NCBI GenBank assembly: GCA_035352355.1
Contig: DAOPXM010000009.1
Location: 39,957-103,956, forward strand
Source of the DNA: Deltaproteobacteria bacterium
GTDB lineage: Bacteria; Desulfobacterota; Desulfomonilia; UBA1062
Reading direction: 5' to 3'
Length of the DNA stretch: 64,000 nucleotides
The notes under the pieces are model-generated. The model was not told the origin of the DNA. It saw nothing but the letters and a program-made list of their open reading frames with translations, and did not search any database. Below are positions 7,449 to 35,875 of this stretch, piece after piece (positions within the stretch are counted from its first letter, which is position 1; each line of letters opens with the position of its first letter). The position numbers and the translations under genes were made by a program.

Positions 7449-7480
7449 CACAGGGAGGTGGAGGTGTGGGATACCCGACA

Positions 7481-14121: not shown

Positions 14122-14164
14122 GGAACCTTCCTCCTTGTGCGTTTTGTCCCTTCCCGAACGATCC

Positions 14165-16340: not shown

Positions 16341-16471
16341 GTTCCGCATTGTCCTTGTAAGAACAATAGTATATATAGCCCGGCAGCACTATCCCGCAGA
16401 GATGTGTACGTGACCGTGCCAGAGCACCTGCGCAACCATTCATGTCACGAAACTGAGGACAGAGGAGAAGC

Positions 16472-19177: not shown

Positions 19178-20892
19178 TTGCCGCCTTCCTCCCCGAGGAG
19201 CTTCGCCAGGTGGGAAAAGATGGTCTTGCTCTCGGCCGTGGTCTCGCCCAAGAGGTGGGCGATCTCGTGGGCCACGCGCATCTGCTTGCTCACCACCTCG
19301 CGAGTCCTCTGGAGCGTCTCTTCGCGGATGGCGTTGAACTTCTCCTTCTCCCTCTCCCGCTCGGTGACGTCGCGGATGACGGCCACCAAGAGTCCCTGGC
19401 CCTCCACAGGAACCACGGTCTGCTTCGTGACGATGTCTTCCCTGATGCGGCAGGCCTTGGCGTACACCGGCTGCTTCGTGTCCCTCACCGAGATGTAGTC
19501 GTCGAGCACGGACACGAGGGTCGACAGGTGCTTGCCCTCGACGTCGGCGAGCTTGCACTGGAAGAGGGCCTCGGCGGAGGGCGACATGTCGTTGATGATG
19601 AGGTTGTTGTCGAAGATGATGATGGCGTTGGGGATGAGGTCCATCACGACCTGGCGCAGGGATTCGGAGCGGCTGCGCATGTTGGGTATGCACATGGTGG
19701 CCTCGGCCATGCCCCTCAATGTCGCCACCGCCTTTTCCCGGCAGCTCGAGTAGCCGCACGCCCCGCAGTTGAGCTCGTCCTCCCTGGTGTACTTGTTGAC
19801 CCTGTGGAGCACCTCCTGGATCTGCTCTTCGGAAAACTCCGGGACGTAGACCTTGCGGTCCCGGTATGTCCGGGTCAGGTCAGGCCATTCCTCACGGGGG
19901 ATGTGAAGGTCGTTCTGCCGCCTGGCGTTGAACTCGATGATCTTCTGCCGCGCCAGGTAGAGGCTTCCGGAGAGGCCGGCCATGGCAGGCCCGTTGACGC
20001 ACCCGCCCTTGCAGGCCAGGAGCTCCACGATGCCCGCTTTGAGCGTGCCGGCCCGGATGTCCGAGAGGATGTCACCAATGGAATCGAGCCCGGAGGCCAC
20101 GATCATGGAGCCCTCGAGGATGTCCGTGTTCATCCTGGCGGTGCCGACGAGCCCGCCTTCGATGGGGAAGAGGCGCGCCATCTCCGGGGTCGCCTCACTG
20201 GAGGGCTCTTCTCCCGGCTGCAGGGTCACGCCGTTCTCGATGAAGAGCTCGAGCAGCCCCCGGAAGGTGATGACCGCGTCGATCACCCCCGATACCGACT
20301 CGGCGTGCATCTCCGCCTTCTTCGCTATGCAGGGCCCCACGAACACGACGTATGCGTCTTCTCCGTACTTCTTCTTGAGCAGGCGGCCGTGGGCGATCAT
20401 GGGGGACACGATGGGCGCCAGGTGGCCGATGAGGTCGGGGTGATACTGCTCGATGAGGTTCACCACCACCGGGCACGACGAGGTGATGATGGGCCAGCGG
20501 TCCCGGTTAGCCTCCATGTATTCGCGATGGGCGAGACCCACGATCTCGGCGCCGATGGCCGTCTCTTCGGCCGCATGGCAGCCCAGATCGAGGAGGGCCT
20601 TTTCCATCTCGGCAAAGCTGCCCATGTTGAAGAAGGCCGGCGCCGACGGCGCCACCGAGGCCACGATCTTGAGACCCCTGTCCCTGGCCCCCTCGATCTC
20701 CTGGCGGGCGCTCTGGATGCTCTTGGCCTCCTGGGGACAGACGCGCACGCAGGTGCCGCAGATGATGCAGAGCTCTGGCACCACGTTGGCCTGGTGCTCC
20801 TTGACCCGGATGGCCTTGACGCCGCAGTTGCGCACGCACAGGTAGCAGTCGCGGCAGCGGGCGGGGTTGGTCATGATGACCGGTTCGTTCAT
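19174..20892 (-). CDS. sensory-type [FeFe]-hydrogenase-like protein with a C-terminal PAS domain (HydS/HfsB-like)
   Basis: N-terminal 2x CxxCxxCxxxC. H-domain motifs are TSSCP, GPCIAKKAE and ELLACKGGCVNGP. A PAS-like segment follows (LIPNAIIIFDNNLIINDMSPSAEALFQCKLADVEGKHL). Start is the ATG at 20892 with AAGGAGGGA upstream. Confidence 0.85.
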   Translation of the reverse strand: MNEPVIMTNPARCRDCYLCVRNCGVKAIRVKEHQANVVPELCIICGTCVRVCPQEAKSIQSARQEIEGARDRGLKIVASVAPSAPAFFNMGSFAEMEKALLDLGCHAAEETAIGAEIVGLAHREYMEANRDRWPIITSSCPVVVNLIEQYHPDLIGHLAPIVSPMIAHGRLLKKKYGEDAYVVFVGPCIAKKAEMHAESVSGVIDAVITFRGLLELFIENGVTLQPGEEPSSEATPEMARLFPIEGGLVGTARMNTDILEGSMIVASGLDSIGDILSDIRAGTLKAGIVELLACKGGCVNGPAMAGLSGSLYLARQKIIEFNARRQNDLHIPREEWPDLTRTYRDRKVYVPEFSEEQIQEVLHRVNKYTREDELNCGACGYSSCREKAVATLRGMAEATMCIPNMRSRSESLRQVVMDLIPNAIIIFDNNLIINDMSPSAEALFQCKLADVEGKHLSTLVSVLDDYISVRDTKQPVYAKACRIREDIVTKQTVVPVEGQGLLVAVIRDVTEREREKEKFNAIREETLQRTREVVSKQMRVAHEIAHLLGETTAESKTIFSHLAKLLGEEGGK

Positions 20893-20935
20893 GCGGTCCC
20901 TCCTTCGGTGCTGCTGGCCGTGGCCATATGGCGCC

Positions 20936-21202
20936 CTACTTCTTGAGCAGGGCGCTGTTTGCCCTGGGCAGGATCTCCCGGTGGAAGAACCCCTCCGCAT
21001 CCTCGGGTCGGATGCCGCTGAACGCGACATCGCCCACGCGGACGGAGACCCCCTTCGAGCAGGTGTCCATGCAGAAGGCTCCGACGATGTCCACCAGTCC
21101 GGTCAGGCTCTCCTTCTCGATGAGGCGCTGGAACTCGGCTGCAAGCTCGTCAGAGCCGCGGATGCTGCATGAGCTGCCGACGCATATGGTCACGATGAGC
21201 AT
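20936..21202 (-). CDS. thioredoxin-like [2Fe-2S] ferredoxin
   Basis: MLIVTICVGSSCSIRG (Cx4C) and FCMDTC (Cx3C); 88 aa. Lies 13 nt downstream of the fusion hydrogenase stop. Confidence 0.75.
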   Translation of the reverse strand: MLIVTICVGSSCSIRGSDELAAEFQRLIEKESLTGLVDIVGAFCMDTCSKGVSVRVGDVAFSGIRPEDAEGFFHREILPRANSALLKK

Positions 21203-21215: not shown

Positions 21216-24200
21216 TCACCCGTCGAGCAGCGACGCGAGATGGGTGTCAATGAACCCGGCGGCGTCGGCCGTGTCGATGCCGGAGATGATCTTCTGGCCC
21301 ACCACGACGTTTGGCCCGCCTTCGCACTGGCCGGTGCAGAACCGCGCCTTGATCCGGAAGCGCTCCGAGAGCCCCCTGCGCCTCAGCTCGGCCGCGAGGC
21401 CCTCGAGGAGCTTCCAGGACCCCTTGACATAGCAGTTCGTGCCGATGCAGACCCCCACGTCGATGACGGGCAGCTCCTTCAGGATCACCTCGGCCTGCTT
21501 TTCCTCGAACCGCATGGAGCGGCGGCGGTAGGTGGTGTGGAGCGCGTGGTGCGACGTCTCGCTCACGGGCTGACCCAGCCAGTTTTCGTATATGGCCTGG
21601 ATGGCGGGGTTGTCCTGGCTCTTCCTCACGGGCGCCTCCTGGTCGAGCCGGTAGAGGACCTCGAGACGCGCCGCCGTGTCGCTGGCAATCTCGGGCGCAG
21701 GGTTGCCTGAGCCGTTGATGCAGCCGCCGGGGCAGGCCATGACCTCGATGAGGTCGTAGGGGGCGTCGCCGGAGCGGATGCGGTCGATGAGGTTCTGGGC
21801 GTTCTGCAGTCCGCTCACCACGGCAAGCCTCACCGTGACGTCACCTAAGGTCACGTTGGTCTCCTTCACCCCCTGCAGGCCGCGCACGCCTTCGTAGGTG
21901 AAGCTGTCGAGGCGCTTGCCCGTGACCCGCTCTGCAGCCAGGCGGAGCGCCGCTTCAGCCACGCCGCCGCTGGCCCCGAAGATGACGCCCGAGCCGCTCG
22001 CCTTGCCGAAGAAGGTGTCCACCGGGATGGGTTCGATGGCCTTCGGGTCGATACGGCGTTCGGAGAACATCCCGATGACGTCGTTCGTGGTGAGGACCAC
22101 GTCCACGTCCGCTATGCCGTCGTGGCTGAACTCCGGCCTCGCGGCCTCGTACTTCTTGGCGTTGCAGGGCATGATGGACACGAAGTAGAGGAGCGCCGGG
22201 TCCACCTTGAGCTGTCTGGCGAAGTACTGCTTCATGACCGCGCCGAACATCTGCTGGGGCGACTTGCAGGAAGACAGGTGTGGCAGGATGTCCGGTGCCA
22301 TCTTCTCGCAGTAGTTGATCCAGGCCGGGCAGCAGGAGGTGATCTGCGGCAGCACCCCGCCCTCGGCGAGGCGGCTCAGGAACTCGGTGCCCTCCTCCAT
22401 GATGGTGAGGTCCGCCGCCCAGCAGGTGTCGAAGACGAAGTTGAAGCCGAGCCGCTTGAGACCGGCGCTCAGGACGGCCATGGCATCCTCGGGGGAGATG
22501 CCGTAGTGCTGGGCGAACGCTGCCCGCACGGCCGGTGCGATCTGGGCCACCACCGTGAGCTCCGGGTTCTGGAGCGCCCTGTACACCTTGGGGAGCACCG
22601 GCTTCATGACCAGGGCGCCGGTGGGGCAGATGGAGGCGCAGTGGCCGCAGGCCACGCAGGTGGTCAGATCGAGGGGCCGGTGGTCGTTGGGTCCGATGGT
22701 GAGGACGCCCTTGGTCTCGTGGAAGCTCAGGGCGGACACGCCCTCCATCTCGCGGCACACCTTGAGGCACAGGCCGCACAGGATGCACTTGCCGGGGTCC
22801 CGGGTGATGATGGGGTGATTGTCGTCGACCGGCAGGGGCGTCGCCGGAAGCGTGTGGTCGATCGTGACGTCGTAGAGAGTCGCGCAGTCCCGCAGGTCGC
22901 ACCCGTAGCGCTCGGTGCAGCCGCACGCCAGGCACCGGGCCGCCTCGTCCATGGTGGTGTCCATGTCCCAGGTCTTCGACGACTCGTCGAAGGTCCCCTT
23001 CCTCGATTCAGGGGAGAGGACCGCGATCTCCCGGCGCTCGGCAGGCCTCACGCCCTTGAATTCCTCCGCCGGGATATCCTTCCAGCTCCCCTTCGAGCAG
23101 GTGTAGGGCTCGGGGGGAAGTTCGACCGTACCGGTCCGGATGAGGGAGTCGATGGCCTCGGCAGCCCTCCTGCCCGCGCCGATGGCGGCGATGGCGATGT
23201 CCGGCCCAGTGACGCAGTCCCCGCCCGAGAACACCCAGGGGTCAGCGGTCTGCATGGTCACCGGGTCTGCCTTGATGTTGCCCCATTTGTCCAGCAGGTT
23301 CGCGTTGCCCACGCTGGCAGCGTCCACTGCCTGGCCGATGGCCGAGATGATCGTGTTGGCGGTGATGGTGAAGTCCGAGCCCGCCACCGGGACCGGCCTC
23401 CTCCTGCCGCTCTTGTCCGGCTCGCCCAGCTCCATGCGGGTACAGGTCATCTGGAGCATGGAGCCGGCCTGCCTGATGGAGACGGGCGCCGTGAGGTACT
23501 GGATGTTCACCCCCTCCTCGATGGCCTCCTCGATCTCGATCTCCTGGGCGGGCATCTCGTGGCGGGTGCGGCGGTAGGCGATGGTCACGTCCCTGGCACC
23601 CAGCCTGAGCGCGCTGCGGGCAGCGTCCATGGCGGTGTTGCCGCCGCCGATGACGAGGACCCTCTCCCCGATGTCGGGCTTTTCGCCCCTGGCCAGCCTG
23701 GCCAGGAAGTCGAGGCCGGACATGACGCCGGGCAGGTCTTCGCCGTCGACGCCGATGGCGGTGGCCTTCTGGGCCCCCAGGCCTATGAACACGGCCGTGA
23801 ATCCGTCGCGCTTCAGGGACTCGATGGTGAAATCACGGCCGAGCTTCTTGTTGTACCGTATCTCGACACCCAGGTCGAGGATGGACCTGATCTCCTCGTC
23901 GAGCTGCCTTTCCGGCAGGCGGTAGTAGGGGATGCCCCAGCGGAGCATGCCGCCTGCTGCCTCCTGCATCTCGAAGATGGTCACGCTGTGGCCTTTCCTC
24001 CGGAGGAAGTACGCGGCGGTGAGGCCTGCCGGGCCGGCGCCCACCACGGCAACCTTCACGCCGGTGTCCGGTGCGCACTCGGGCGAGTAGGGGGACAGCT
24101 GGTACCGGTCCCAGTCCGCCACGAAGCGCTTGATCGCGTTGATGTTCACCGCGCCGTCCACCGCGTTGCGGCGGCACTCGGACTCGCAGGGATGGGGGCA

Positions 24201-24638
24201 GACGCGGCCGCAGACCCCGGGCAGGGGATTGCTCTCCTTGATGACCTCGAGGGCCTCGGCGAAGTTGCCCGAGGATACGTGATAGATGTATTTCTGGATG
24301 TCGATGTTGGCCGGGCACCTCTGCACGCAGGGGGCCACGCAGTCGCCGTAGTGGTTCTTGAGCAGGCCCTGGAGGTAGATCCGGCGGTAGCTCGTCAGCG
24401 CGTCCGATTGGGTCCTAACGATCATGCCCTCGGAGACACGGGTCGAAGTGGCGGAGACGAACCTGGTCTTTCCCCCTTCGATGACCTCAACGAACGCGAC
24501 TTCCACCGTGCTCGGGGCGCTGACCCTCGGGTCGTAGCCCAGTGCCGGGATGGAGATGCCGTGTGCCCGTGCTGCGTCGATGATGGTCGTGGTGCTGTCC
24601 GCTGTACACATTTTGTCGTCGATGGTTAAGGTGAGCAT
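21216..24638 (-). CDS. [FeFe]-hydrogenase fused to a GltD-like NAD(P)H:FAD module (glutamate-synthase-linked, group A2-like), with a C-terminal Trx-like [2Fe-2S] domain
   Basis: Domain order: Cys-less ferredoxin-like N-domain; GltD Fe-S (CVAPCVQRCP, GVCGRVCPHPCESECRRN); two Rossmann motifs (VVGAGPAGLTAA, VIGGGNTAMDAA); 2x[4Fe-4S] (CILCGLCLKVC, CVACGHCASICP); H-cluster motifs TSCCPAW, MPCNAKKYE and EVMACPGGCINGSG; SSU-like tail; then CIGTNC...CTGQC. Start set at the second ATG (24638), 5 nt after GGAGG; the track ORF runs to 24725. Confidence 0.9.
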   Translation of the reverse strand: MLTLTIDDKMCTADSTTTIIDAARAHGISIPALGYDPRVSAPSTVEVAFVEVIEGGKTRFVSATSTRVSEGMIVRTQSDALTSYRRIYLQGLLKNHYGDCVAPCVQRCPANIDIQKYIYHVSSGNFAEALEVIKESNPLPGVCGRVCPHPCESECRRNAVDGAVNINAIKRFVADWDRYQLSPYSPECAPDTGVKVAVVGAGPAGLTAAYFLRRKGHSVTIFEMQEAAGGMLRWGIPYYRLPERQLDEEIRSILDLGVEIRYNKKLGRDFTIESLKRDGFTAVFIGLGAQKATAIGVDGEDLPGVMSGLDFLARLARGEKPDIGERVLVIGGGNTAMDAARSALRLGARDVTIAYRRTRHEMPAQEIEIEEAIEEGVNIQYLTAPVSIRQAGSMLQMTCTRMELGEPDKSGRRRPVPVAGSDFTITANTIISAIGQAVDAASVGNANLLDKWGNIKADPVTMQTADPWVFSGGDCVTGPDIAIAAIGAGRRAAEAIDSLIRTGTVELPPEPYTCSKGSWKDIPAEEFKGVRPAERREIAVLSPESRKGTFDESSKTWDMDTTMDEAARCLACGCTERYGCDLRDCATLYDVTIDHTLPATPLPVDDNHPIITRDPGKCILCGLCLKVCREMEGVSALSFHETKGVLTIGPNDHRPLDLTTCVACGHCASICPTGALVMKPVLPKVYRALQNPELTVVAQIAPAVRAAFAQHYGISPEDAMAVLSAGLKRLGFNFVFDTCWAADLTIMEEGTEFLSRLAEGGVLPQITSCCPAWINYCEKMAPDILPHLSSCKSPQQMFGAVMKQYFARQLKVDPALLYFVSIMPCNAKKYEAARPEFSHDGIADVDVVLTTNDVIGMFSERRIDPKAIEPIPVDTFFGKASGSGVIFGASGGVAEAALRLAAERVTGKRLDSFTYEGVRGLQGVKETNVTLGDVTVRLAVVSGLQNAQNLIDRIRSGDAPYDLIEVMACPGGCINGSGNPAPEIASDTAARLEVLYRLDQEAPVRKSQDNPAIQAIYENWLGQPVSETSHHALHTTYRRRSMRFEEKQAEVILKELPVIDVGVCIGTNCYVKGSWKLLEGLAAELRRRGLSERFRIKARFCTGQCEGGPNVVVGQKIISGIDTADAAGFIDTHLASLLDG

Positions 24639-24839
24639 CATATCCTCCTCGGTCTGGGGTGCGCTGAGAGCTGGTTTTCCTGAAATGCCTTCAGGATATT
24701 GATCGGGGTATGGTGTATCATCCACGCTACCTCAAGATCATTCATGGCTGCTGTGTGGGCTATTTTATATCTTCTCAGTATCATTTATGAATATACAGCA
24801 AGTAACATAGGGAAGGCAATTTAAAAAAGTGTGAAAGGT

Positions 24840-25400
24840 TCAAGATAAGCGGTCTCTGTCCAGGATGGTGTTAATATTGGCGAATGTGATTTCGGGGTCT
24901 GTGTAGGCGCGGATGGTTTCATCGGGAATTCTCAGTGTGTTCACGCGGTCGAGCAGGGTGAATATCTTCCGCTCCCCCCTGTCCAGGAGGTCTTTCACCA
25001 CCGGGAGGACCCGCCGGTGATAGATGGCGTGGAGCGGTTCCCTGCCTTTCGACCAGACAGGTATGACCACGTCGTGCTCCCCGGACCGGGAGATCATGTA
25101 CGAGATGAATTCGCGGCTCAGTCTCGGCATGTCTGCGGCGAACACGAAGCACTGCGGTGTCCCGGCCACGGTGAGCGCGGTGTAGATCCCGCCCAAGGGA
25201 CCGTAACCGGGGAAGATGTCCTCGGCCACCCGGTGAGCCTCGAGCCCGGGGCGCCTGTTCCCGATGAGGATGACCTCGTCGAACAGGGGGGTGATCACAT
25301 CCACGACGTGGTCCACGAGGCTCTTTCCCTGGAAGGATGAGATGACCTTGTCGGAGCCGAACCTGCTCGACCTGCCGCCTATGAGTACGATGCCTGTCAT
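24840..25400 (-). CDS. mobA: molybdenum cofactor guanylyltransferase MobA
   Basis: MTGIVLIGGRSSRFGSDK (LxGGxSxRxG motif), about 186 aa. Start trimmed to 25400. Confidence 0.85.
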   Translation of the reverse strand: MTGIVLIGGRSSRFGSDKVISSFQGKSLVDHVVDVITPLFDEVILIGNRRPGLEAHRVAEDIFPGYGPLGGIYTALTVAGTPQCFVFAADMPRLSREFISYMISRSGEHDVVIPVWSKGREPLHAIYHRRVLPVVKDLLDRGERKIFTLLDRVNTLRIPDETIRAYTDPEITFANINTILDRDRLS

Positions 25401-25476
25401 GTGGGCTTTCACATAAAAATACCCGGGAGGGCGTGTCAAGGGCAATTATGTAGGCACGGCAAAACATAAATAGAGC

Positions 25477-26698: not shown

Positions 26699-29600
26699 AT
26701 GAAGGTCTTTCGAGCTCATATACTGGTATGCGGCGGTACCGGCTGCAGGGCGTCCGGAAGCGAGGACGTCCATGGGGCAGTCGTCAGGGAAATAGCGGCA
26801 AAAGGGCTCTCAGATGAGGTCGCCATCGTCGAAACCGGCTGCAACGGTTTCTGCGCAGCAGGCCCCATCATGGTCATCTACCCCGAGGGCACCTTCTATC
26901 AGTACGTCAAGAGTGACGACGTAAAAGAGATCATCGAAGAGCACATCATCAAGGGCCGCCCGGTCCAGAGGCTCATGTACAGGGAGCCCGTCACCGAGAA
27001 GGCCATCCCCCACATGCTCGACATCCCCTTCTTCGGCAAGCAGCAGCTCATCGCTCTGAAGAACAGGGGCCTCATCGACGCCGAGAAGATCGACGAGTAC
27101 ATCGCCCGCGACGGCTACCTGGGCGCTGCCAAGGCGCTCACCGAGATGACCCAGGACGAGGTCATCGAGGAGGTGAAGAAGTCCGGTCTCCGCGGCAGAG
27201 GCGGCGGCGGTTTCCCCACCGGCATGAAGTGGCAGTTCGCCAAGAAGTCCCAGAGCGACATCAAGTTCATCCTCTGCAACGCCGACGAGGGCGACCCGGG
27301 CGCGTTCATGGACCGCTCGGTCCTCGAAGCCGACCCCCATGCAGTGCTCGAGGGCATGATCATCGGCGGCTATGCCATCGGCGCCAACAAGGGCTACATC
27401 TACTGCCGGGCCGAGTATCCGCTGGCCATCAAGCGCCTCGACATCGCCATCCGGCAGGCCAAGGAGTACGGCCTCCTGGGAGAGAACATCCTGGGCTCCA
27501 ACTACTCCCTGGACATCGAGGTCTACCAGGGCGCAGGCGCGTTCGTCTGCGGCGAAGAGACCGCGCTCATGGCATCCATCGAAGGCAAGCGCGGCATGCC
27601 CAGGCCCAGGCCCCCATTCCCTGCATCCCAGGGCCTGTGGAAGAAACCCTCGGTTCTAAACAACGTCGAAACCTTTGCCAACATCCCGCAGATCGTCCTG
27701 AAGGGTGGGGCATGGTACTCCTCCATCGGCACCGAGCGCTCCAAGGGCACCAAGGTGTTCGCGCTCACCGGTGCGGTGAACAACGTGGGTCTGGTGGAAG
27801 TCCCCATGGGCACCCCCATCGGCGACATCATCTTCGACATCGGCGGCGGCATCCCGGGCGGCAAGCAGTACAAGGCGGCCCAGCTGGGCGGCCCCTCCGG
27901 CGGCTGCATCCCGGCCTCGGCGCTGAACACACTCACCGACTATGAAGAAATCATCAAGCTCGGCGCCATCATGGGCTCCGGCGGCCTCATCGTCATGGAC
28001 GAGGACACCTGTATGGTGGACACGGCCCGGTTCTTCATGGAGTTCTGCCAGGAAGAGTCCTGCGGCAAGTGCACCCCGTGCCGTGAAGGCACCAAGCGCA
28101 TGCTTGAGGTCCTCCACCGGATCTGCCACGGCGAAGGCAAGGATGGGGACATCGAGCTCCTCGAAGAGCTCGCGGCCACCATCAAGGACTCCGCGCTCTG
28201 CGGCCTCGGCCAGACGGCCCCCAACCCCGTGCTCTCCACCATCCGCTACTTCAGGGACGAGTACGAGGCCCACATCTACGACAAGAAGTGCCCGGCAGCG
28301 GTGTGCTCCTCGCTGTTCAAATCCCCATGCCAGTCCGCATGCCCCATCGAGATGGACGTCCCGGCCTACATCGCGCTGATCAGGGCGGGCAGGCTGGAAG
28401 ACGCCTACAGGGTCATGCTCAGGACCAACCCGTTCCCCGGCGTCTGCGGCCGCGTGTGCCCGCAGTTCTGCGCCTCGAAGTGCCGCAGGCAGCAGCTCGA
28501 CGAGCCCATGGCCATCGCGTGGCTCAAGCGCTACATCGCAGACAACGGACGCAAGCCCGTCATCGAAGCCGTACCGGTCACCCGCAAGGAAAAGATCGCG
28601 GTCATCGGCGCAGGCCCGGCCGGTCTCACCGCTGCACAGGACCTGGCGAAGCGCGGCTACAAGGTAACGGTGTTCGAAGAGCTTCCCCATGCGGGCGGCA
28701 TGATGCGCTACGCCATCCCCGAGTACCGGCTCCCGAGAAACATCATCGAGGAAGAGGTGAAGGACATCGAAGCCCTGGGTGTCGAGATCAGGACCAACAC
28801 CAGGGTAGGCAAGGACATCACCTTTGACAAGCTCCGCAAGGACTATGACGTGGTGATTCTCGCAGTGGGCGCGCACAAGAGCTGGACGCTGGACATCGAG
28901 GGCGAAGACCTCCAGGGCGTCTGGGGCGCAACCGAGTTCCTCAGGGAAGTCAACCTGGGCAAGGACGTGAAGATCGGCTCCAAGGTCGCCATCGTGGGCG
29001 GCGGCAACTCCGCCATCGACGCGGCGAGGACCGCCGTGCGTCTCGGCGCCGGCGACGTCACCATTCTCTATCGCAGGGAGCGCAAGGACATGCCTGCCTG
29101 GGAGCATGAGATCGTGGCAGCCGAGCACGAAGGCGTGAAGATCGAATACCTCGTGGCCCCCGTGAAGCTCGTGGGCGAGAAAGGCAAGCTCACCGGCGTG
29201 GTCTGCCAGAAGATGAAGCTGGGCGAGTTCGACCGCTCCGGCAGGCGTAAGCCGGTCCCCATCCCCGGCAGCGAGTACACCATCTCCATCGACACCATCA
29301 TCCCGGCCATCTCCCAGTCGTCCGACACCACCTTCATCCCCGACGGGTCCGACGTGAAGAAGGACAAGTGGGGCGGCATCGAGAAGGTGGCCAAGAGCAA
29401 AAACAGGACGCTCGCCAAGGGCGTGTACATCATCGGCGACGCGGCCACCGGGCCGGCCACGGTGGTGGAAGCCATCGCCATGGGCCACGACGTGGCCAAG
29501 GACGTGGACGCCTCCATCAGGGCCTGGAACAACGAGCCCGCCTACAGGGAGCCCGAGGCCGATAAGATCGACATCCCGTTCGAGGTGAACGAGGAGCTTG

Positions 29601-29740
29601 TCGTCACGCCCAAGGAGTTCATGCCCGAGAAGGAGATCGCGGCGAGGGTGGCCAATTTCGCAGAGGTCGAGTTGGGCTACACGAAAGAAAAGGCCTACAA
29701 AGAGGCGTGCAGATGCCTCAGGTGCGATGCGGAGCTGTAA
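26699..29740 (+). CDS. hndC: NuoF-like flavoprotein subunit (HndC/HydB) fused to a C-terminal GltD/NfnB-like NAD(P)H oxidoreductase
   Basis: Trx-like N-domain (LVCGGTGC...CNGFC). NuoF core (GGGGFPTGMKWQF, ESCGKCTPCREG). Then KKCPAAVCSSLFKSPCQSACP, GVCGRVCPQFCASKCRR, VIGAGPAGLTAA and IVGGGNSAIDAA; 1013 aa. Confidence 0.9.
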   Translation: MKVFRAHILVCGGTGCRASGSEDVHGAVVREIAAKGLSDEVAIVETGCNGFCAAGPIMVIYPEGTFYQYVKSDDVKEIIEEHIIKGRPVQRLMYREPVTEKAIPHMLDIPFFGKQQLIALKNRGLIDAEKIDEYIARDGYLGAAKALTEMTQDEVIEEVKKSGLRGRGGGGFPTGMKWQFAKKSQSDIKFILCNADEGDPGAFMDRSVLEADPHAVLEGMIIGGYAIGANKGYIYCRAEYPLAIKRLDIAIRQAKEYGLLGENILGSNYSLDIEVYQGAGAFVCGEETALMASIEGKRGMPRPRPPFPASQGLWKKPSVLNNVETFANIPQIVLKGGAWYSSIGTERSKGTKVFALTGAVNNVGLVEVPMGTPIGDIIFDIGGGIPGGKQYKAAQLGGPSGGCIPASALNTLTDYEEIIKLGAIMGSGGLIVMDEDTCMVDTARFFMEFCQEESCGKCTPCREGTKRMLEVLHRICHGEGKDGDIELLEELAATIKDSALCGLGQTAPNPVLSTIRYFRDEYEAHIYDKKCPAAVCSSLFKSPCQSACPIEMDVPAYIALIRAGRLEDAYRVMLRTNPFPGVCGRVCPQFCASKCRRQQLDEPMAIAWLKRYIADNGRKPVIEAVPVTRKEKIAVIGAGPAGLTAAQDLAKRGYKVTVFEELPHAGGMMRYAIPEYRLPRNIIEEEVKDIEALGVEIRTNTRVGKDITFDKLRKDYDVVILAVGAHKSWTLDIEGEDLQGVWGATEFLREVNLGKDVKIGSKVAIVGGGNSAIDAARTAVRLGAGDVTILYRRERKDMPAWEHEIVAAEHEGVKIEYLVAPVKLVGEKGKLTGVVCQKMKLGEFDRSGRRKPVPIPGSEYTISIDTIIPAISQSSDTTFIPDGSDVKKDKWGGIEKVAKSKNRTLAKGVYIIGDAATGPATVVEAIAMGHDVAKDVDASIRAWNNEPAYREPEADKIDIPFEVNEELVVTPKEFMPEKEIAARVANFAEVELGYTKEKAYKEACRCLRCDAEL

Positions 29741-29779: not shown

Positions 29780-31582
29780 ATGGCGAATGTCAATGTAACT
29801 ATTGATAATATAAAAGTCAGTGTCGAAGAGGGATCCACCATCCTCGATGCGGCCAAGGCCGCCGGCATCAAGATACCCACCCTGTGCGCATGGCCTGAGA
29901 TCGATCACAGACCCGGCGCATGCAGGGTGTGCGTAGTCGAGGTTGACGGTCAGAGGAACCTCGTCGCCTCCTGCGTGTTCCCGGTGAACGAGGGCATGGT
30001 GGTCAAGACCACCACGGAGCGGGTGCGCAAGGCAAGGAAGCTCAACGTCGAGCTCCTGCTTTCGAACCACCCCACCGAGTGCAACGTCTGCGTGCGCAAC
30101 GGCAACTGCGACCTCCAGGTCGTGGCCGAGGCCGTGGGCCTGCGCGAGGTGCGCTTCACGTATCCCCAGTACGTTGCAACAGACTATATCGACGACTCGA
30201 GCCCGTCCGTGGTGCGCGACGCCCGGAAGTGCATCAAGTGTTACCGCTGCGTGACCGTGTGCGACCAGGTACAGACCGCCTCGGTCCTGTCCCCCACCTT
30301 CAGGGGCGACGACGTGCGCATCGGCCCGGCGTTCAACCTGCCGCTGCTCGAAACCAACTGCACCAACTGCGGACAGTGCATCCTGGCCTGCCCGGTGGGC
30401 GCCCTGTACGAGAAGGACGACACCGAACACGTCTGGGCTGCGCTCAACGACCCCACGAAGCACGTGGTCGTCCAGGAGGCCCCGGCCATCCGCGCGGCCC
30501 TGGGCGAGGACCTCGGCATGCCGATAGGCTCCCTGGTCACGGGCAAGATGCTCACGGCCTTGAGGAGGCTCGGCTTCGACAAGGTGTTCGACACCAACTT
30601 CACGGCGGACCTCACCATCATCGAGGAAGGCAACGAGCTGCTCCAGCGGGTGAAAACCGGCGGGAAGCTCCCCATGATCACTTCGTGCTCGCCCGGTTGG
30701 ATCAAGTTCTGCGAGCACTTCTATCCCGACCTCCTCGACCACCTCTCCACCTGCAAGTCGCCCCAGCAGATGATGGGCGCCCTCATCAAGACGTACTACG
30801 CCCAGCAGGCGGGCATCGACCCCAAGGACATCGTGTCGGTCTCCATCATGCCCTGCACGGCCAAGAAGTTCGAATGTCAGCGTGATGAGATGCGGGACAG
30901 CGGGTATCAGGACGTGGATTACGTGCTCACCACCCGTGAGCTCAGCCGCATGATCAGGCAGGCGGGCATCGACTTCGCGAGCCTGCCCGATGGCGACTAC
31001 GACAACCCCCTCGGCGAGTACACCGGCGCCGGCACCATCTTCGGCGCAACCGGAGGCGTCATGGAAGCGGCCCTTCGCACGGTGTACGCCGTGGTCACCG
31101 GAACCAATCTCGAAAGCCTCGACATCACCCCGGTCCGCGGACTCGAGGGCGTGAAGGAGGCGGCGGTCGAGGTCGGCCCCCTGGGCAAGGTCAAGGTTGC
31201 CGTCGCCCATGGGCTCAGCAATGCACGTAAGCTCATGGACAGGATCCGTGAAGGCACGGCCGACTATGCCTTCATCGAGGTCATGTGCTGCCCCGGCGGC
31301 TGCATCAGCGGCGGCGGACAGCCCATCGCGCCCAGCAACGAAAAGAGGATCCAGCGCTCCGCAGCCCTCTACAAGGATGACAATGCGGTGCAGAAGTTCC
31401 GCCAGTCTCACGAGAACCCGTCCGTGAAGAGGATCTACGAGGTCTTCCTCAAGGAGCCCCTCGGACACAAGTCCCACGAGCTGCTCCACACGCACTACTG
31501 CAAGCGCGGCACCGATCTGCCCCATGTGAAGGGTGCGGAGCTCGAGGTGAATGAGGAACACGCGACGAAAGCAGCACACTAG
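29780..31582 (+). CDS. hndD: [FeFe]-hydrogenase catalytic subunit (HndD/HydA, M3-type with SSU-like tail)
   Basis: 2Fe-2S (CAWPEIDHRPGACRVC), His-ligated cluster (HPTECNVCVRNGNC), 2x[4Fe-4S], and H-cluster motifs TSCSPGW, MPCTAKKFE and EVMCCPGGCISGGGQP; 600 aa. Confidence 0.95.
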   Translation: MANVNVTIDNIKVSVEEGSTILDAAKAAGIKIPTLCAWPEIDHRPGACRVCVVEVDGQRNLVASCVFPVNEGMVVKTTTERVRKARKLNVELLLSNHPTECNVCVRNGNCDLQVVAEAVGLREVRFTYPQYVATDYIDDSSPSVVRDARKCIKCYRCVTVCDQVQTASVLSPTFRGDDVRIGPAFNLPLLETNCTNCGQCILACPVGALYEKDDTEHVWAALNDPTKHVVVQEAPAIRAALGEDLGMPIGSLVTGKMLTALRRLGFDKVFDTNFTADLTIIEEGNELLQRVKTGGKLPMITSCSPGWIKFCEHFYPDLLDHLSTCKSPQQMMGALIKTYYAQQAGIDPKDIVSVSIMPCTAKKFECQRDEMRDSGYQDVDYVLTTRELSRMIRQAGIDFASLPDGDYDNPLGEYTGAGTIFGATGGVMEAALRTVYAVVTGTNLESLDITPVRGLEGVKEAAVEVGPLGKVKVAVAHGLSNARKLMDRIREGTADYAFIEVMCCPGGCISGGGQPIAPSNEKRIQRSAALYKDDNAVQKFRQSHENPSVKRIYEVFLKEPLGHKSHELLHTHYCKRGTDLPHVKGAELEVNEEHATKAAH

Positions 31583-31687
31583 AGAACATCCCTTGAAACA
31601 GGGGGGCAACCCCCTATAAGAAAAGGGAAACCTGCCTGCGGGGGAGGCCAGAGGCTGACCTTTAGGGAAGGATGAGGGAAAGAACAG

Positions 31688-31726
31688 AGGCCCTTGCCGT
31701 CCTCGCATGGCAAGGGCCTTTTTTTG
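31688..31726 (+). terminator. rho-independent terminator between hndD and the maturase genes
   Basis: 11-bp perfect stem AGGCCCTTGCC/GGCAAGGGCCT with a 10-nt loop, followed by T7. Confidence 0.7.
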
Positions 31727-31748
31727 TGCCCGCTTCCCGGAGGAGAAC

Positions 31749-32006
31749 ATGGAAGAAAAGACACGGAGGATCGGGGTCGTGAGCATCATCATCACGGACC
31801 GGAAGGAATCGGCCCGGGAGGTGAACGACATCCTCAGCAGGCACGGAGAGATCATCATCGGCAGGATGGGCCTGCCCTACGAGCCCCGCCACATCCACAT
31901 CATCGCGCTCATCATCAACGGGACCACCGACGAGGTGGGCGCACTCACCGGCAAGCTCGGCTCCCTGCGAGGGGTGGAGGTCAAGTCGGCCCTGACCAGG
32001 ATATGA
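31749..32006 (+). CDS. TM1266-like ACT-fold protein (putative iron-only hydrogenase system regulator)
   Basis: The 85-aa product RRIGVVSIIITDRKESAREVNDILSRHGEIIIGRMGLPY...IALIINGTTDEVGALTGKLGSLRGVEVKS matches the family pattern from memory. GGAGGAG RBS. Its stop overlaps the hydG ATG. Confidence 0.7.
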   Translation: MEEKTRRIGVVSIIITDRKESAREVNDILSRHGEIIIGRMGLPYEPRHIHIIALIINGTTDEVGALTGKLGSLRGVEVKSALTRI

Positions 32007-33415
32007 AAACCGAGGTGCTCATGAAGGACTTTATCAACGATCAAGCGATCATCGACCTGCTCGACAGATCCCTCAATCCCCATGACGCCCGGGTCAGGGA
32101 GATCATAGCGAAATCCAGGGAGCTCAAGGGCCTGGACCCCGAAGAGGCGGCTGTGCTCCTCCAGGTCCGGGATCCGGAGCTCAACGGCCTCATCTTCGAG
32201 GCCGCCCACGACATCAAGAACGCCATCTACGGCAACCGGCTCGTGATGTTCGCGCCCCTGTACACCTCGAACCGCTGCTCCAACAACTGCCTCTACTGCG
32301 GGTTCAGGAGGGACAACCGGGAGCTCAAGAGGGTTTCGCTCACCTTGGACGAGATCGCCGAAGAGGTGAGGATCCTCGAGCGCCAGGGCCACAAGCGCCT
32401 CCTCATGCTCTGCGGGGAGCAGAAGGGCGGGAGAACGCTCGACCGCTTCATCGAGGCCATCGAAACGGCGTACGCCACCACAACGGAAGGTGGGGGCGAG
32501 ATCCGGCGGATCAACGTGGAGGTGGCGCCCCAGGACGTGGAGGGGTTCAGGCGACTCAAGGCCGCGAACATCGGCACCTACGTCCTGTTCCAGGAGACCT
32601 ACCACCACGCCACCTACAAGGCCATGCACCCGAGCGGGCCCAAGGCCGACTACCTCTGGCGCCTGTCCGCCATGGACCGGGCCATGGAGGCCGGCATCGA
32701 CGATGTGGGCATCGGCGCCCTGTTCGGGCTCTGCGACTACAGGTTCGACGTCCTGGGCCTGCTCCACCACGCCCGGTACCTCGACGAAAAGTTCGGGGTG
32801 GGTCCGCACACCATGTCCGTGCCGAGGCTCGAGCCGGCCCTGAACGCACCTGCGGCCATCAGGCCGCCGAACCCGGTGAGCGATTACGACTTCAAGCGCA
32901 TCGTGGCCATCATCCGGATGTCCGTGCCCTACACCGGGATCATCCTCTCCACCAGGGAACGGCCGGAGGTCAGGCGCGAAATCTTCAAGGTGGGCATATC
33001 CCAGATCAGCGCAGGGTCCCGCACCAACCCCGGCGGCTACCACAACGGCGTGGAGGGCATGGACGATGCCGCCCAGTTCAACCTGGGCGACACACGCTCT
33101 CTCGACGAGGTCATCCTCGACATCTCGAAGGAAGGCCACATACCGAGCTTCTGCACCGCCTGCTACCGGCTGGGCCGCACAGGCAGCGACTTCATGGACC
33201 TGGCGAAGCCCGGGCTCATCCAGAAGTTCTGCCGCACCAACGCCATCATGACCTATCTCGAATACCTCGTGGACTACGCATCCCCCGAGACCAGGAGGGT
33301 GGGTGAGGAGCTCATCGGGCGCCTCGTGTCCGAGACGGGCGACAACGGCACCCGGCGTCTCCTCGAGGAGAGGCTCGAAAAGATCAGGAAGGGTGAGCGT
33401 GACCTGTACATCTGA
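32003..33415 (+). CDS. hydG: [FeFe]-hydrogenase maturase HydG (radical SAM tyrosine lyase)
   Basis: CSNNCLYCGFRRDN radical-SAM motif and the C-terminal CTACYRLGRTG...FC (CX2CX22C) auxiliary cluster motif. Confidence 0.95.
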   Translation: MKTEVLMKDFINDQAIIDLLDRSLNPHDARVREIIAKSRELKGLDPEEAAVLLQVRDPELNGLIFEAAHDIKNAIYGNRLVMFAPLYTSNRCSNNCLYCGFRRDNRELKRVSLTLDEIAEEVRILERQGHKRLLMLCGEQKGGRTLDRFIEAIETAYATTTEGGGEIRRINVEVAPQDVEGFRRLKAANIGTYVLFQETYHHATYKAMHPSGPKADYLWRLSAMDRAMEAGIDDVGIGALFGLCDYRFDVLGLLHHARYLDEKFGVGPHTMSVPRLEPALNAPAAIRPPNPVSDYDFKRIVAIIRMSVPYTGIILSTRERPEVRREIFKVGISQISAGSRTNPGGYHNGVEGMDDAAQFNLGDTRSLDEVILDISKEGHIPSFCTACYRLGRTGSDFMDLAKPGLIQKFCRTNAIMTYLEYLVDYASPETRRVGEELIGRLVSETGDNGTRRLLEERLEKIRKGERDLYI

Positions 33416-34496
33416 GACTCTCCGCATCATAGAGAAGGCCGCGCAGGGGGACGTGACGGGCAGGGAGGAGATCGTCCGCCTCCTTGAGCTCGATGCACCC
33501 GAAGAGCTAGACGCCCTGTTCAGGGCCGCCGACCGCATGAGAAAGGCCTGCGTGGGGGACGAGATCTTCCTCAGGGGGATCATCGAGTTCTCCGGCTACT
33601 GCAGCAGGAACTGCCACTACTGCGGGCTCAGGGCCCAGAACCGGGAGGTCGTCCGCTACCGGATCCCGGAAGACGAGATCGTGGCCAGGGCTCACGGCCT
33701 CTGGGAAAGGCAGTGCACCACTGTGGTCCTCCAGTCAGGGGAGGACCGCTTCTACGACAGGGAGCGGATGTGCTCGCTGATCCGCAGGATCAAGGCCGAG
33801 ACCGACCTCGCCATCACCCTGTCCATCGGCGAGCGCAGCCTTGAAGACTACCGGGCCTTCAAGGAGGCCGGCGCCGACCGCTACCTGCTTAGGCACGAGA
33901 CGGCAAATGCAGGGCTCTACCGGAAGCTCCATCCCGGCTACGAGCTCGAAGACCGGATTCAGTGCCTGAGATGGCTGAAAGGGCTCGGGTACGAAGTGGG
34001 GTCGGGGTGCATCGTCGGCCTGCCAGGCCAGACCGTGCACGACCTGGCGGACGACGTGCTCCTCATCAGGGCCCTCGACATCGACATGATCGGGGTGGGG
34101 CCGTTCATCCCGCATCCCGGGACGCCGCTCAGGGATGCTCCCGCCGGAAGCACGGACCTGGTCCTGAAGATGCTCGCGGTGCTCAGGCTCCTGACCAGGG
34201 ACACGAACATACCCGCCACCACGGCCCTGGGCGTCCTCGACCCGGGTGCCAGGAGAAATGCGTTCCTCGCCGGGGCGAACGTGTTCATGCCCAACTTCAC
34301 CCCGGTCCGGTACATGGAGCTCTACGAGATCTACCCGGGCAAGGGCCCGGAGGCCGGAACCATCGCAAAGGCATCGGAGGGCGGCTATGTCGCCCTGTTC
34401 GAGGGCATGGGCAGGACCATAGGCAGGGGCTGCGGGTACCGGGAAAAGAAGGCCTGCCCGCGGGAGCCCGGAAGCTGTGCGGGAGGCGCTGCATGA
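33399..34496 (+). CDS. hydE: [FeFe]-hydrogenase maturase HydE (radical SAM)
   Basis: IIEFSGYCSRNCHYCGLRAQN with biotin-synthase-like architecture. GTG start at 33399 (33393 is an alternative) overlaps the 3' end of hydG. Confidence 0.9.
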   Translation: MTCTSETLRIIEKAAQGDVTGREEIVRLLELDAPEELDALFRAADRMRKACVGDEIFLRGIIEFSGYCSRNCHYCGLRAQNREVVRYRIPEDEIVARAHGLWERQCTTVVLQSGEDRFYDRERMCSLIRRIKAETDLAITLSIGERSLEDYRAFKEAGADRYLLRHETANAGLYRKLHPGYELEDRIQCLRWLKGLGYEVGSGCIVGLPGQTVHDLADDVLLIRALDIDMIGVGPFIPHPGTPLRDAPAGSTDLVLKMLAVLRLLTRDTNIPATTALGVLDPGARRNAFLAGANVFMPNFTPVRYMELYEIYPGKGPEAGTIAKASEGGYVALFEGMGRTIGRGCGYREKKACPREPGSCAGGAA

Positions 34497-35875
34497 GGAA
34501 GGAGAAGGACTCCATCGGATATTTCGACATCCCGGATGACGCCTTTTACGGGATCCACACGGCCCGCGCCGTCGACAACTTCGGGGAGGGCAGGCACGAC
34601 GGGCTCTTCGTCACCGCGTACCTGCAGGTGAAGAAGGCCGCGGCCCTGGCCAACGGGGAGCTGGGCTTTCTCGACCCCGAGAGGGCGGGGGCCATCGTCT
34701 CCGCCATCGACGCCCTCATCGCCGACGGTTCGTACGGGGACATCGTGGTGAACCCCCTGAGCGGGGGCGCAGGCACCTCCCTCAACATGAACATAAACGA
34801 GGTGGTGGCAAACCACGCTTTGGCCCTCTCCGGAAGAGGGAAGGGGGACTACGGCCATATCCACCCCCTGGACCACGTGAACCTGCACCAGTCCACCAAC
34901 GACACCTACCCGAGCGCCCTGCGCATCGCCATGCTCGTACACCTGAACCGGCTCGAAGGGGAGCTCGCCTCGCTGCAGGAGGCCCTCCAGGCAAAGGAAA
35001 AGGAGTTCGCGGGCATCGTCAGGCTCGGCCGCACCGAGCTCCAGGACGCCCTGCCCATGACCGTGGGCATGCAGTTCTCGGCGTGGGCCGAGGCCATCGC
35101 CCGGGATCGGTGGCGCATCTTCAAGGCCCGGGAGCGGATCAAGGCGCTCAATCTCGGCGGCACGGCCATCGGAACCGGGTTCAATGCGCCCCGGAGGTAC
35201 ATCTTCCTGGTGCTCGAGAAGCTCAAGGAGATCACCCGGCTGGGTGTGACCCGGGCGGAGAACATGCTCGAGGCCACCCAGAACCTCGACGCGGTGGTTG
35301 AAGTATCCGGGCTCATGAAGACCCTGGCCGTGAACCTCCTGAAGATCGCCGAGGACATCCGGCTCCTGTCCTCCGGCCCTGCGGGCGGGATCGGCGAGCT
35401 CAAGCTCGAGCCCCTCCAGGAGGGATCGTCCATCATGCCCGGCAAGGTCAACCCGGTGATGCCCGAGTTCGTGAGCCAGGCCGCCCTCCTGGTCATGGCC
35501 AACGATCAGGCCATCACCCACGCGGCAGGACTCGGCAACCTCGAGCTCAACCAGTTCTCCCCCCTGGTGGCCACCCTTATGCTCCGGAACTTCACCCTGC
35601 TGTCCAGGGCAGTGACCGGTCTCGACCGAAAGGTGATCAGGACGATCGGGGTGAACGAGGATAGGATGAAGGCGCACCTCACGAACTCGGTGGCCCTGCT
35701 CACCTACCTCACGGCCCACATCGGGCACGACCTTGCCGCCGATGTGTACATGAAGATGAAAGCGAGCGGGAAGAGCGCCCGGGAGATCATCGTTGGAGAA
35801 GGGATCATGACACCTGAGAAATTCGACGAGCTGACCGCGCCGGAGCGGATCAGCATGGCGGGGTACAGGCCATGA
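34493..35875 (+). CDS. aspA: aspartate ammonia-lyase / class II fumarase-family lyase embedded in the hyd maturase cluster
   Basis: Fumarate-lyase signature GSSIMPGKVNPV, and TNDTYPSA. ATGA overlaps at both ends (34493-96 and 35872-75). Confidence 0.85.
   Translation: MRKEKDSIGYFDIPDDAFYGIHTARAVDNFGEGRHDGLFVTAYLQVKKAAALANGELGFLDPERAGAIVSAIDALIADGSYGDIVVNPLSGGAGTSLNMNINEVVANHALALSGRGKGDYGHIHPLDHVNLHQSTNDTYPSALRIAMLVHLNRLEGELASLQEALQAKEKEFAGIVRLGRTELQDALPMTVGMQFSAWAEAIARDRWRIFKARERIKALNLGGTAIGTGFNAPRRYIFLVLEKLKEITRLGVTRAENMLEATQNLDAVVEVSGLMKTLAVNLLKIAEDIRLLSSGPAGGIGELKLEPLQEGSSIMPGKVNPVMPEFVSQAALLVMANDQAITHAAGLGNLELNQFSPLVATLMLRNFTLLSRAVTGLDRKVIRTIGVNEDRMKAHLTNSVALLTYLTAHIGHDLAADVYMKMKASGKSAREIIVGEGIMTPEKFDELTAPERISMAGYRP

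Follow-up and report, generated by a model that had tools for sequence, protein, structure and literature searches.

A bifurcating-type BfuB (NuoF) subunit with a GltD module in place of its ferredoxin-like domain in an HndABCD-type [FeFe] hydrogenase operon of a Desulfomonilia-like bacterium

A stretch of 64,000 nucleotides from the assembly of a Deltaproteobacteria bacterium (GCA_035352355.1, contig DAOPXM010000009.1, positions 39,957 to 103,956; hereafter the window) carries a four-gene [FeFe] hydrogenase operon, the third gene of which, hndC*, encodes a fused flavoprotein of 1013 amino acids. Its N-terminal half is, by sequence, BfuB of the bifurcating type, the NuoF-like subunit of Bfu enzymes. 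Where BfuB normally ends in a ferredoxin-like domain with the clusters B3 and B4, the chain continues into a GltD module of the Stn/NfnABC type, predicted to hold two [4Fe-4S] clusters, flavin adenine dinucleotide (FAD), and an NADP(H) site. With somewhat less than even confidence, we favor the reading that the complex is a hydrogenase of the Bfu type whose low-potential branch uses NADP(H) instead of ferredoxin.

The hndC* reading frame (26699-29740, forward strand) comprises 1013 codons with no internal stop. The Pfam scan matched 2Fe-2S_thioredx (residues 5-81), Complex1_51K (159-330, 1e-47), SLBB (353-402), NADH_4Fe-4S (441-525, 6e-38), Fer4_20, a GltD/DPD-type Fe-S domain (533-618, 5e-24), and Pyr_redox_2, a two-Rossmann flavoprotein family (632-929, 3e-32). 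Among these are all four families that an earlier note on this DNA had named for a domain scan: Complex1_51K, NADH_4Fe-4S, Fer4_20, and Pyr_redox_2. NCBIfam models for NuoF aligned with residues 129-530, and the GltD, PRK12771, and PRK12814 models with residues 494-1011. The motifs GGGGFPTGMKWQF (residues 168-180), ESCGKCTPCREG (453-464), KKCPAAVCSSLFKSPCQSACP (529-549), and GVCGRVCPQFCASKCRR (582-597) were located, and two Rossmann motifs follow (Table 1). The thioredoxin (Trx)-like [2Fe-2S] domain, the NuoF core for flavin mononucleotide (FMN) and NADH, and the N3 motif have the order and spacing that the earlier note gave, and its statement that a GltD Fe-S region and two Rossmann motifs replace the usual ferredoxin-like end agrees with the Pfam scan. 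No Fer4 dicluster family was matched in hndC* by that scan, and therefore hndC* lacks the pair of CxxCxxCxxxCP motifs seen in ordinary HydB/HndC; the C-terminal B3/B4 domain that belongs to the criteria for BfuB (PMC9304861) and HndC is thus missing. In the AlphaFold2 model, the single domains are confident, but the predicted TM score is 0.54, and the predicted local distance difference test score falls below 50 at the hinge (535-543), which is disordered, and at the C-terminus. A fold search with this model matched both halves to known folds only, and no solved chain spanned the two.

Among the chains of the Protein Data Bank (PDB), the N-terminal half scored 840 bits with NiFe-HydB of Acetomicrobium mobile (7t2r_B, residues 1-543 to 1-543 with no gaps), 809 bits with HydB of A. 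woodii (7q4v_B), 706 bits with that of T. kivui (8a6t_B), 702 bits with StnB (8oh5_B), 687 bits with C. saccharolyticus NfnB (9bov_B), and 645 bits with T. maritima HydB (7p5h_B), while complex I NuoF and the beta subunits of non-bifurcating formate dehydrogenases (FDHs) reached at most 415 bits. Identity is about 70% to the A. mobile and A. woodii proteins, the other Bfu HydB being more distant. The alignment with A. mobile HydB is gap-free over residues 1-542, the homology stops at residue 542-543, and the remaining 54 residues of A. mobile HydB form the ferredoxin-like B3/B4 domain. The B2 site of BfuB consists of C438, C476, H525, C531, and C536, the His being absent in non-bifurcating homologues (PMC9304861); all five ligands are present in hndC* under the same numbering as in A. 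mobile HydB. Bifurcating and non-bifurcating beta subunits are told apart by A202/M204 and GGPSG (PMC7311640, PMC9304861), and A202, M204, and GGPSG (397-401) occur in hndC* and are conserved in its family. Further features expected of BfuB were likewise found, namely a NuoF-like FMN/NAD(H) domain with the B1 [4Fe-4S] site, the N-terminal B5 site, and HndA as the BfuC partner that carries the C1 cluster.

The GltD module spans about 470 residues and begins eight residues past the hinge residue Cys536, in the place that B3/B4 take in HydB. When residues 541-1010 were compared with PDB chains, the scores were 400 bits for the GltD insert of C. saccharolyticus NfnA (9bov_A, residues 101-567), 379 bits for T. 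sibiricus NfnA (9n5u_A), 354 bits for S. ovata StnC (8oh5_C, residues 101-566), 340 bits for NfnB (4ylf_B), 336 bits for NfnL (5jca_L), and 242 bits for GltD of glutamate synthase (6s6s_G). The label "GltD/NfnB-like" used in the earlier note is thus right as to the GltD family but too generic, the nearest relative being the GltD insert of the Stn/NfnABC BfuA. Both marks of the Stn subtype are present. The CxxC (C1006, C1009) lies at the very C-terminus, after the Rossmann folds as in StnC and C. saccharolyticus NfnA, whereas it is N-terminal in NfnB and GltD; residue 610 is Lys, the equivalent of StnC K170, whereas NfnB has Glu. StnC K170 is essential by mutagenesis and a proposed cluster ligand (PMC10482914). 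The NADP(H) marks GxGxxA and YRR are also in place, and the predicted fold superimposes on NfnB and NfnL with TM scores of 0.77-0.80 (normalized by target) and a root mean square deviation of about 3.3-3.6 Å. In Stn, the GltD module feeds electrons and does not bifurcate (PMC10482914); since the same fold is non-bifurcating there, it is unsafe to ascribe to hndC* the bifurcating role that the FAD has in NfnB. An Arg contacting FAD N5 was considered as a marker of a bifurcating FAD and dropped, because NfnB and StnC both carry it; it is conserved in 31 of the 46 fused homologues described below.

Conservation was evaluated in an alignment of 46 fused proteins with 34-100% identity. The B1 cysteines (C455, C458, C461, and C501) are kept in at least 44 proteins, C458 and C501 in all, and C438, H525, C531, and C536 do not vary at all; at position 476, 30 proteins have Cys and 12 have Thr. 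In the GltD module, Cys 544, 548, 587, 591, and 595, the FAD and NADP glycines, A772, and R793 are invariant, C1006 and C1009 occur in 45, C583 and every FAD/NADP(H) motif position in at least 44 (C583 in exactly 44), and K610 in 42 proteins. The B5 residues C11/C16 are lost in about 12 of the 46, about a quarter of the family. This pattern indicates strong purifying selection on all cofactor sites of both halves and on the hinge. The claim of two separate flavin/pyridine-nucleotide sites on one polypeptide is borne out by intact ligands conserved throughout the family, and the possibility that the GltD part had lost its cofactor-binding residues did not materialize. The functions proposed in the earlier note, a coupling of H2 to both NAD and NADP and Nfn-like chemistry, are inferred from these conserved sites.

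The artefact that the earlier note had allowed for, an hndC and an adjacent gltD/nfnB-like gene joined by a frameshift or mis-assembly, is ruled out: the frame is continuous, the identical protein with the same neighbors is present on an independent metagenome contig from JGI, the junction is fixed eight residues past the invariant Cys536 and recurs in the clusters and species genomes listed next, and no evidence speaks in its favor. A search of 5.8 billion proteins returned more than 120 full-length clusters (1011-1018 aa, 67-100% identity), most of them from metagenome-assembled genomes (MAGs) of Desulfomonilia, Syntrophales, or 'Deltaproteobacteria' and annotated as 'NuoF' or 'NADP-reducing hydrogenase'. 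Among 50%-identity cluster representatives, full-length fused proteins were found down to 35-36% identity, and the cluster look-up gave generic names only ('NuoF', 'FAD-dependent oxidoreductase'). A survey with one genome per species and a query spanning the junction gave matches in at least 48 species (loci L001-L048) of about seven phylum-level lineages, the species count being a lower bound. By record label, the carriers are Desulfomonilia/Thermodesulfobacteriota/Syntrophales, a Desulfosarcina, Clostridia including the isolate 'Clostridiales bacterium VE202-15', Anaerolineales, Planctomycetaceae, Phycisphaerae, Holophagaceae/Mesoterricola, Myxococcales, and Ca. Eisenbacteria. A neighbor-joining tree of NuoF cores intersperses the fused proteins with ferredoxin-type BfuB; being crude (neighbor joining, fragments, midpoint root), it does not tell single from multiple fusion events.

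A shorter protein type of about 650 residues, annotated 'FAD-dependent oxidoreductase' (P0210, P0211, P0220, P0223, P0226, P0234, P0248, P0268, and L049 3990-5861), combines the NuoF four-helix bundle and its B1 cysteines with the GltD module and resembles NCBIfam NF009410/PRK12771. These proteins are devoid of the Trx-like, FMN/NAD(H), and SLBB domains and have lost most hinge ligands (C536 is Tyr; C531 and H525 vary). At least one of them, in L049, adjoins a NuoG-type fdhA. They may correspond to the beta subunit type of the NADP-dependent FDH of Moorella thermoacetica, a lead that comes from the wording of PMC5736913.

The setting of the fusion is that of an HndABCD-type enzyme, as the earlier note had it: hndA, hndB, and hndD flank hndC* in the gene set and order of the tetrameric [FeFe] hydrogenase, with intergenic gaps of 9, 0, and 39 nt. 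HndA covers the full Pfam 2Fe-2S_thioredx profile and also matches the NCBIfam HoxE/NuoE models; its mechanical open reading frame (ORF) starts at GTG 25727, and the identical JGI contig bears a 160-aa gene call. The Pfam 2Fe-2S_thioredx match of HndB is weak. In HndD, Pfam matches comprise Fe_hyd_lg_C (9e-104), Fe_hyd_SSU, Fer2_4, and NADH-G_4Fe-4S_3, the score with NCBIfam NF040763 is 905 bits (cut-off 765), and the H-cluster domain is intact with the motifs TSCSPGW, MPCTAKKFE, and EVMCCPGGCISGGGQP. The features are collected in Table 1.

Table 1. Coordinates in the window of hndC*, its parts, and the associated operon features
Feature	Position	Strand	Evidence
hndA, NuoE/HoxE/BfuC-like [2Fe-2S] subunit (cluster C1), 160 aa	25817-26299	+	2Fe-2S_thioredx 2.7e-50
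hndB, small thioredoxin-like [2Fe-2S] ferredoxin subunit, 129 aa	26309-26698	+	NCBIfam 2Fe-2S ferredoxin 6e-10
hndC*, fused BfuB(NuoF)-GltD flavoprotein	26699-29740	+	1013 aa, single ORF; Pfam, NCBIfam, PDB matches
N-terminal Trx-like [2Fe-2S] domain, B5 site (C11, C16, C48, C52)	26711-26941	+	Pfam; all four Cys present
NuoF Rossmann-like FMN/NAD(H) domain and SLBB/ubiquitin-like domain, residues 159-402	27173-27904	+	Pfam, HydB identity
Four-helix bundle, B1/N3 [4Fe-4S] (C455, C458, C461, C501) and hinge site B2	28019-28327	+	NADH_4Fe-4S
GltD-type Fe-S domain (C544, C548; C583, C587, C591, C595; K610)	28328-28552	+	Fer4_20, alignments
FAD Rossmann (GAGPAG 637-642) and NADP(H) Rossmann (GGGNSA 767-772, YRR 791-793)	28592-29485	+	Pyr_redox_2
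C-terminal CxCxxC (C1004, C1006, C1009)	29708-29725	+	Alignments with StnC, C. saccharolyticus NfnA, NfnB
hndD/hydA, [FeFe] hydrogenase catalytic subunit (BfuA type)	29780-31582	+	Fe_hyd_lg_C 9e-104, NF040763
Terminator-like hairpin, 15-bp stem and T-run	31686-31731	+	Consensus scan, pattern match only
fdhA, NuoG-type formate dehydrogenase alpha subunit	37459-40146	+	Pfam on both halves; in-frame TGA 38512-38514

Across the surveyed loci, hndA lies upstream of the fusion wherever the locus reaches far enough, and hndB directly upstream in most loci of the Desulfobacterota type (absent in L028 and L030); the clostridial loci L032-L034 have a trimeric arrangement. The gene after the fusion, wherever it can be read, is hydA or a selenocysteine-containing fdhA and nothing else. 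In Desulfobacterota, loci of the hydA type are accompanied by the maturase genes hydG, hydE, and hydF and an aspartase-like gene, and in Acidobacteriota, Myxococcota, Phycisphaerae, and the unclassified MAG of L040 by a sensory HydS as the next gene. In 15 other genomes, an orthologue of the window's selenocysteine-containing NuoG-type fdhA takes the place of hydA after the fusion, directly in all but two. The window holds both partners, hydA directly after the fusion and fdhA beyond the maturase genes. Because hydA or fdhA follows, and both are found in the window, the fused subunit has the appearance of a diaphorase core of general use to H2 and formate enzymes, and the HndA/HndB/HndC* core probably serves FDH as well. 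The in-frame TGA of the window fdhA stands in the selenocysteine context DHCARL-U-HSSTVAGL, and the Rfam scan of the window matched neither an element of the selenocysteine insertion sequence (SECIS) type nor any other family. This fdhA has no diaphorase genes of its own and is possibly a second catalytic partner for the same core. Some genomes contain a GltD-fused BfuB side by side with an ordinary ferredoxin-type or short BfuB: both kinds stand in one gene string before an FdhA-like gene in L037 (Anaerolineales, 3257-8132), and a complete second hydrogenase operon is adjacent in L034 (Clostridiales VE202-15, 5999-16824) and in L032.

Bfu enzymes bifurcate at the B1-FMN-C1 'flavobicluster', and their ferredoxin-like domain is borne by a hinge, the B2 site (PMC12018979, PMC11829005). 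BfuC's C-terminal domain swings C1 to within about 10 Å of B3/B4, and this mobile [2Fe-2S] domain of BfuC (here HndA) would move low-potential electrons from B1-FMN-C1 through B3/B4 to ferredoxin. In the hndC* complex, the GltD module would hang on the B2 hinge and its two [4Fe-4S] clusters would stand in for B3/B4; they would receive the low-potential electrons and pass them through FAD to NADP+, FAD/NADP+ thus taking the place of ferredoxin. The predicted reaction is 2 H2 + NAD+ + NADP+ <-> NADH + NADPH + 2 H+, with an analogous one for formate, and, if the reaction ran backward, NADPH would draw the reoxidation of NADH toward H2 at up to roughly 100 Pa H2, compared with a few Pa when NADH is the only donor. 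At physiological potentials of -280 mV for NADH and -380 mV for NADPH (Table 1 of PMC9304861), the mean donor potential of -330 mV was computed here to be near equilibrium with 1.4e-3 bar H2, against about 3e-5 bar for NADH alone. If real, coupling of this kind would be an advantage where H2 stands at the levels found in methanogenic habitats. The broader proposal of a widespread class of ferredoxin-free Bfu hydrogenases and FDHs that bifurcate or confurcate between two pyridine nucleotides, with NADH on the high-, NADPH on the low-, and H2 or formate on the mid-potential side, is more doubtful, and we would call it somewhat unlikely.

Several points weigh against the replacement of ferredoxin by NADP(H). 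The nucleotide specificity of either site is not provable from sequence, and NADP is the nucleotide used by HytB-type NuoF homologues. How far electrons would have to travel from C1/B2 to the GltD clusters is not fixed, because the model leaves the orientation of the two halves unconfident. A docking place for ferredoxin near the GltD clusters, like the one on NfnB, is still conceivable. The relatives of about 650 residues keep B1 and the GltD module without the hinge ligands, which shows that the Bfu gating apparatus is not needed to connect such a module to B1. Nor is a source of enough NADPH for H2 formation in a syntroph evident, and no characterized enzyme, assay, or structure with a GltD-fused BfuB was found in open-access papers and bioRxiv.

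An alternative, which we judge unlikely and which is the second suggestion of the earlier note, is that ferredoxin is still a substrate and the GltD module gives the low-potential branch an extra port for NADP(H), so that a bifurcating hydrogenase (H2, NAD+, and ferredoxin) would be combined with Stn/Nfn-like transhydrogenase chemistry (NADPH, NAD+, and ferredoxin). Ferredoxin would then dock where the C-terminal domain of HndA and the Fe-S domain of GltD face each other. Every bifurcation mark is retained in hndC*, the replacement Fe-S domain might keep a ferredoxin site, and the two [4Fe-4S] clusters of NfnB are its ferredoxin route (PMC10482914). Against this, the B3/B4 domain, half of the mapped ferredoxin site, is absent; the module is of the Stn type (Lys610, C-terminal CxxC), which in Stn only feeds electrons and neither bifurcates nor binds ferredoxin; and no ferredoxin gene is conserved beside the operon in the surveyed loci.

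Slightly less probable still is a non-bifurcating hydrogenase/FDH diaphorase in which FMN-NAD(H) and FAD-NADP(H) sit uncoupled on one static Fe-S wire, an arrangement that would let H2 equilibrate with both nucleotide pools. The short relatives without an FMN domain and hinge ligands suggest that a GltD module can be a plain NADPH input, and C476 is Cys as in A. mobile, where B2 is a redox-active [2Fe-2S] cluster and thus a possible fixed stepping stone. However, an ungated wire from NADPH to NAD+ would be a futile transhydrogenase, and His525, the hinge cysteines, A202/M204, and GGPSG are strongly conserved over the roughly seven phylum-level lineages, whereas known non-bifurcating homologues lack them. 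A link of the hydrogenase to glutamate synthase or to nitrogen/glutamate metabolism, suggested by the name and homology of the domain, a speculation in PMC6163223, and the 'glutamate synthase-linked' description of HydDB group A2, is highly improbable, since no gltB was found among the scanned ORFs of the window or turned up beside the fusion in the surveyed loci, the glutamate-synthase NCBIfam models stay below their cut-offs on hndC*, the module is much nearer to Nfn-Bfu/Stn and NfnB than to glutamate synthase GltD by the scores above, and the conserved neighbors are hydA or fdhA and the Hyd maturases.

The hndC* complex was compared with the nearest known systems. BfuB/HydB/HndC of the Bfu enzymes (A. 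mobile NiFe-HydABCSL, 7t2r; A. woodii and T. kivui HydABC, 7q4v and 8a6t; T. maritima HydABC, 7p5h; D. fructosovorans HndABCD) have the same cofactor sites and bifurcation marks in the N-terminal half and the same partner genes hndA, hndB, and hndD; their ferredoxin-like B3/B4 tail is the ferredoxin route, whereas hndC* has an FAD/NADP(H) GltD module there. The Stn/NfnABC enzymes (S. ovata StnABC, 8oh5; C. saccharolyticus, 9bov; T. sibiricus, 9n5u) likewise combine a BfuBC core with a GltD-like FAD/NADPH module. In these, however, GltD is inserted in a NuoG-like BfuA without H-cluster and supplies the mid-potential branch, while B3/B4 and ferredoxin stay with BfuB; in the hndC* complex, BfuB carries the module at its low-potential exit, next to a BfuA that is a working-type hydrogenase (or FDH). 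The complex is therefore not Stn/Nfn-Bfu. A GltD-bearing BfuA without H-cluster was not found beside it either, the adjoining gene at 21216-24641 encoding a BfuA-type GltD insert together with an H-cluster. NfnAB/NfnSL (4ylf_B, 5jca_L) share the fold, two [4Fe-4S] clusters, FAD, and the GxGxxA and YRR NADPH motif, but hndC* differs in the CxxC moved to the C-terminus, in Lys610 instead of Glu, and in having no NfnA/PyrK-like partner; no such FAD/[2Fe-2S] gene was seen among the scanned ORFs of the window, and because the NfnA partner is missing, hndC* is not NfnAB.

The architecture is not rare but common in environmental genomes, and it is not unprecedented. A HydB with a GltD domain was mentioned in the 2018 genome paper of Vallitalea guaymasensis L81 (peg.3894-3896; PMC6163223), in one sentence of annotation with no sequence analysis, survey, mechanism, or experiment. 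That version is trimeric, as in the clostridial loci, whereas the version in the window, from a Desulfomonilia-like bacterium, is tetrameric and includes hndB. The HydDB rule (PMC5037454) places hydrogenases with GltD but not NuoF in group A2 and those with NuoF in a neighboring gene in the 'bifurcating' group A3 (NAD and ferredoxin); as any NuoF neighbor leads to A3, the GltD-fused variant is hidden in that group. The rule thus covers the variant implicitly and shows that neighbors of this kind had been encountered. The Bfu survey of PMC9304861 selected BfuB by four InterPro domains, including a 4Fe-4S ferredoxin-type domain, and probably missed the variant, because no Fer4 family matches hndC*. 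Judged by the definition of 2022 (PMC9304861), which asks for six clusters conserved in BfuBC, hndC* does not qualify for want of B3/B4, and it does by the minimal flavobicluster of 2025; it is therefore a variant of BfuB and not a standard member. Neither a survey nor a mechanism of GltD-fused BfuB was found in open-access papers and bioRxiv.

Other genes of the window are described briefly. The hairpin about 100 nt past hndD (Table 1) is the probable end of the four-gene transcript; it overlaps the called ATG (31707) of a TM1266-like gene, and either the true start of this gene is further downstream, or the hairpin works as an attenuator that separates the structural genes from those for maturation. 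The maturation cluster on the forward strand (31707-37101) consists of the TM1266-like small regulator (31707-32006), hydG, hydE, an aspartate ammonia-lyase/fumarase-type gene (33962-35875), and hydF (35872-37101); since the mechanical ORFs overlap heavily, the true gene starts lie further downstream than listed. A second GltD fusion, divergent from the operon (21216-24641, reverse strand; ORF to 24725, about 1141 aa), is built of a NuoG-type [2Fe-2S] domain; a GltD insert that brings Fe-S, FAD, and NADPH sites; ferredoxin-like clusters; an [FeFe] H-cluster domain that is complete (TSCCPAW, MPCNAKKYE, EVMACPGGC); a small-subunit domain; and, at the C-terminus, a Trx-like [2Fe-2S] domain. Residues 31-712 of this protein match C. 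saccharolyticus NfnA (610 bits) and residues 633-1071 T. kivui HydA1, and by these matches it resembles a Stn/NfnABC BfuA with the hydrogenase site retained; its GltD part is just 42% identical to that of hndC*. The pairing of such a gene with an hndC*-type fusion recurs in L001 and L010. Downstream of it lies a gene for a HydS-like sensory [FeFe] hydrogenase (19174-21030, reverse strand) with H-cluster, FeS, and PAS domains. The stretch of about 1 kb between the divergent hydrogenase genes holds a MobA-like NTP transferase gene of the molybdenum cofactor guanylyltransferase type (24840-25445, reverse strand), consistent with a nearby Mo/W formate dehydrogenase. Further downstream are an IcmF-type fused acyl-CoA mutase (44606-48397, forward strand, 1081 aa) with B12-binding, MeaB GTPase, and mutase domains, followed by a corrinoid adenosyltransferase, and a thiolase (55304-56659, reverse strand); the mutase and thiolase hint at the branched or short-chain fatty-acid metabolism typical of syntrophs.

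Bfu enzymes have been described with an 'absolutely conserved' BfuBC core and a ferredoxin exit. The variant reported here keeps the core and swaps the exit for an NADPH/FAD module, and it is found across many uncultured anaerobes of the Desulfomonilia, Syntrophales, Clostridia, Acidobacteriota, Myxococcota, and Planctomycetota. It offers a natural experiment on the Bfu mechanism, namely on the role of the B3/B4 branch and the importance of the hinge site, and is of interest for the fields of electron bifurcation and H2/formate metabolism. If NADP(H) does replace ferredoxin, models of H2 and formate metabolism that assign these enzymes to NAD and ferredoxin as group A3 would be wrong in their electron carriers and H2 thresholds. 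A ferredoxin-free, H2-driven, NADPH-regenerating enzyme would also have biocatalytic uses. Bifurcation between two nucleotides, if true, would be a new bifurcation reaction and an unrecognized route by which anaerobes and syntrophs may shed NADH as H2 or formate, or gain NADPH from trace H2.

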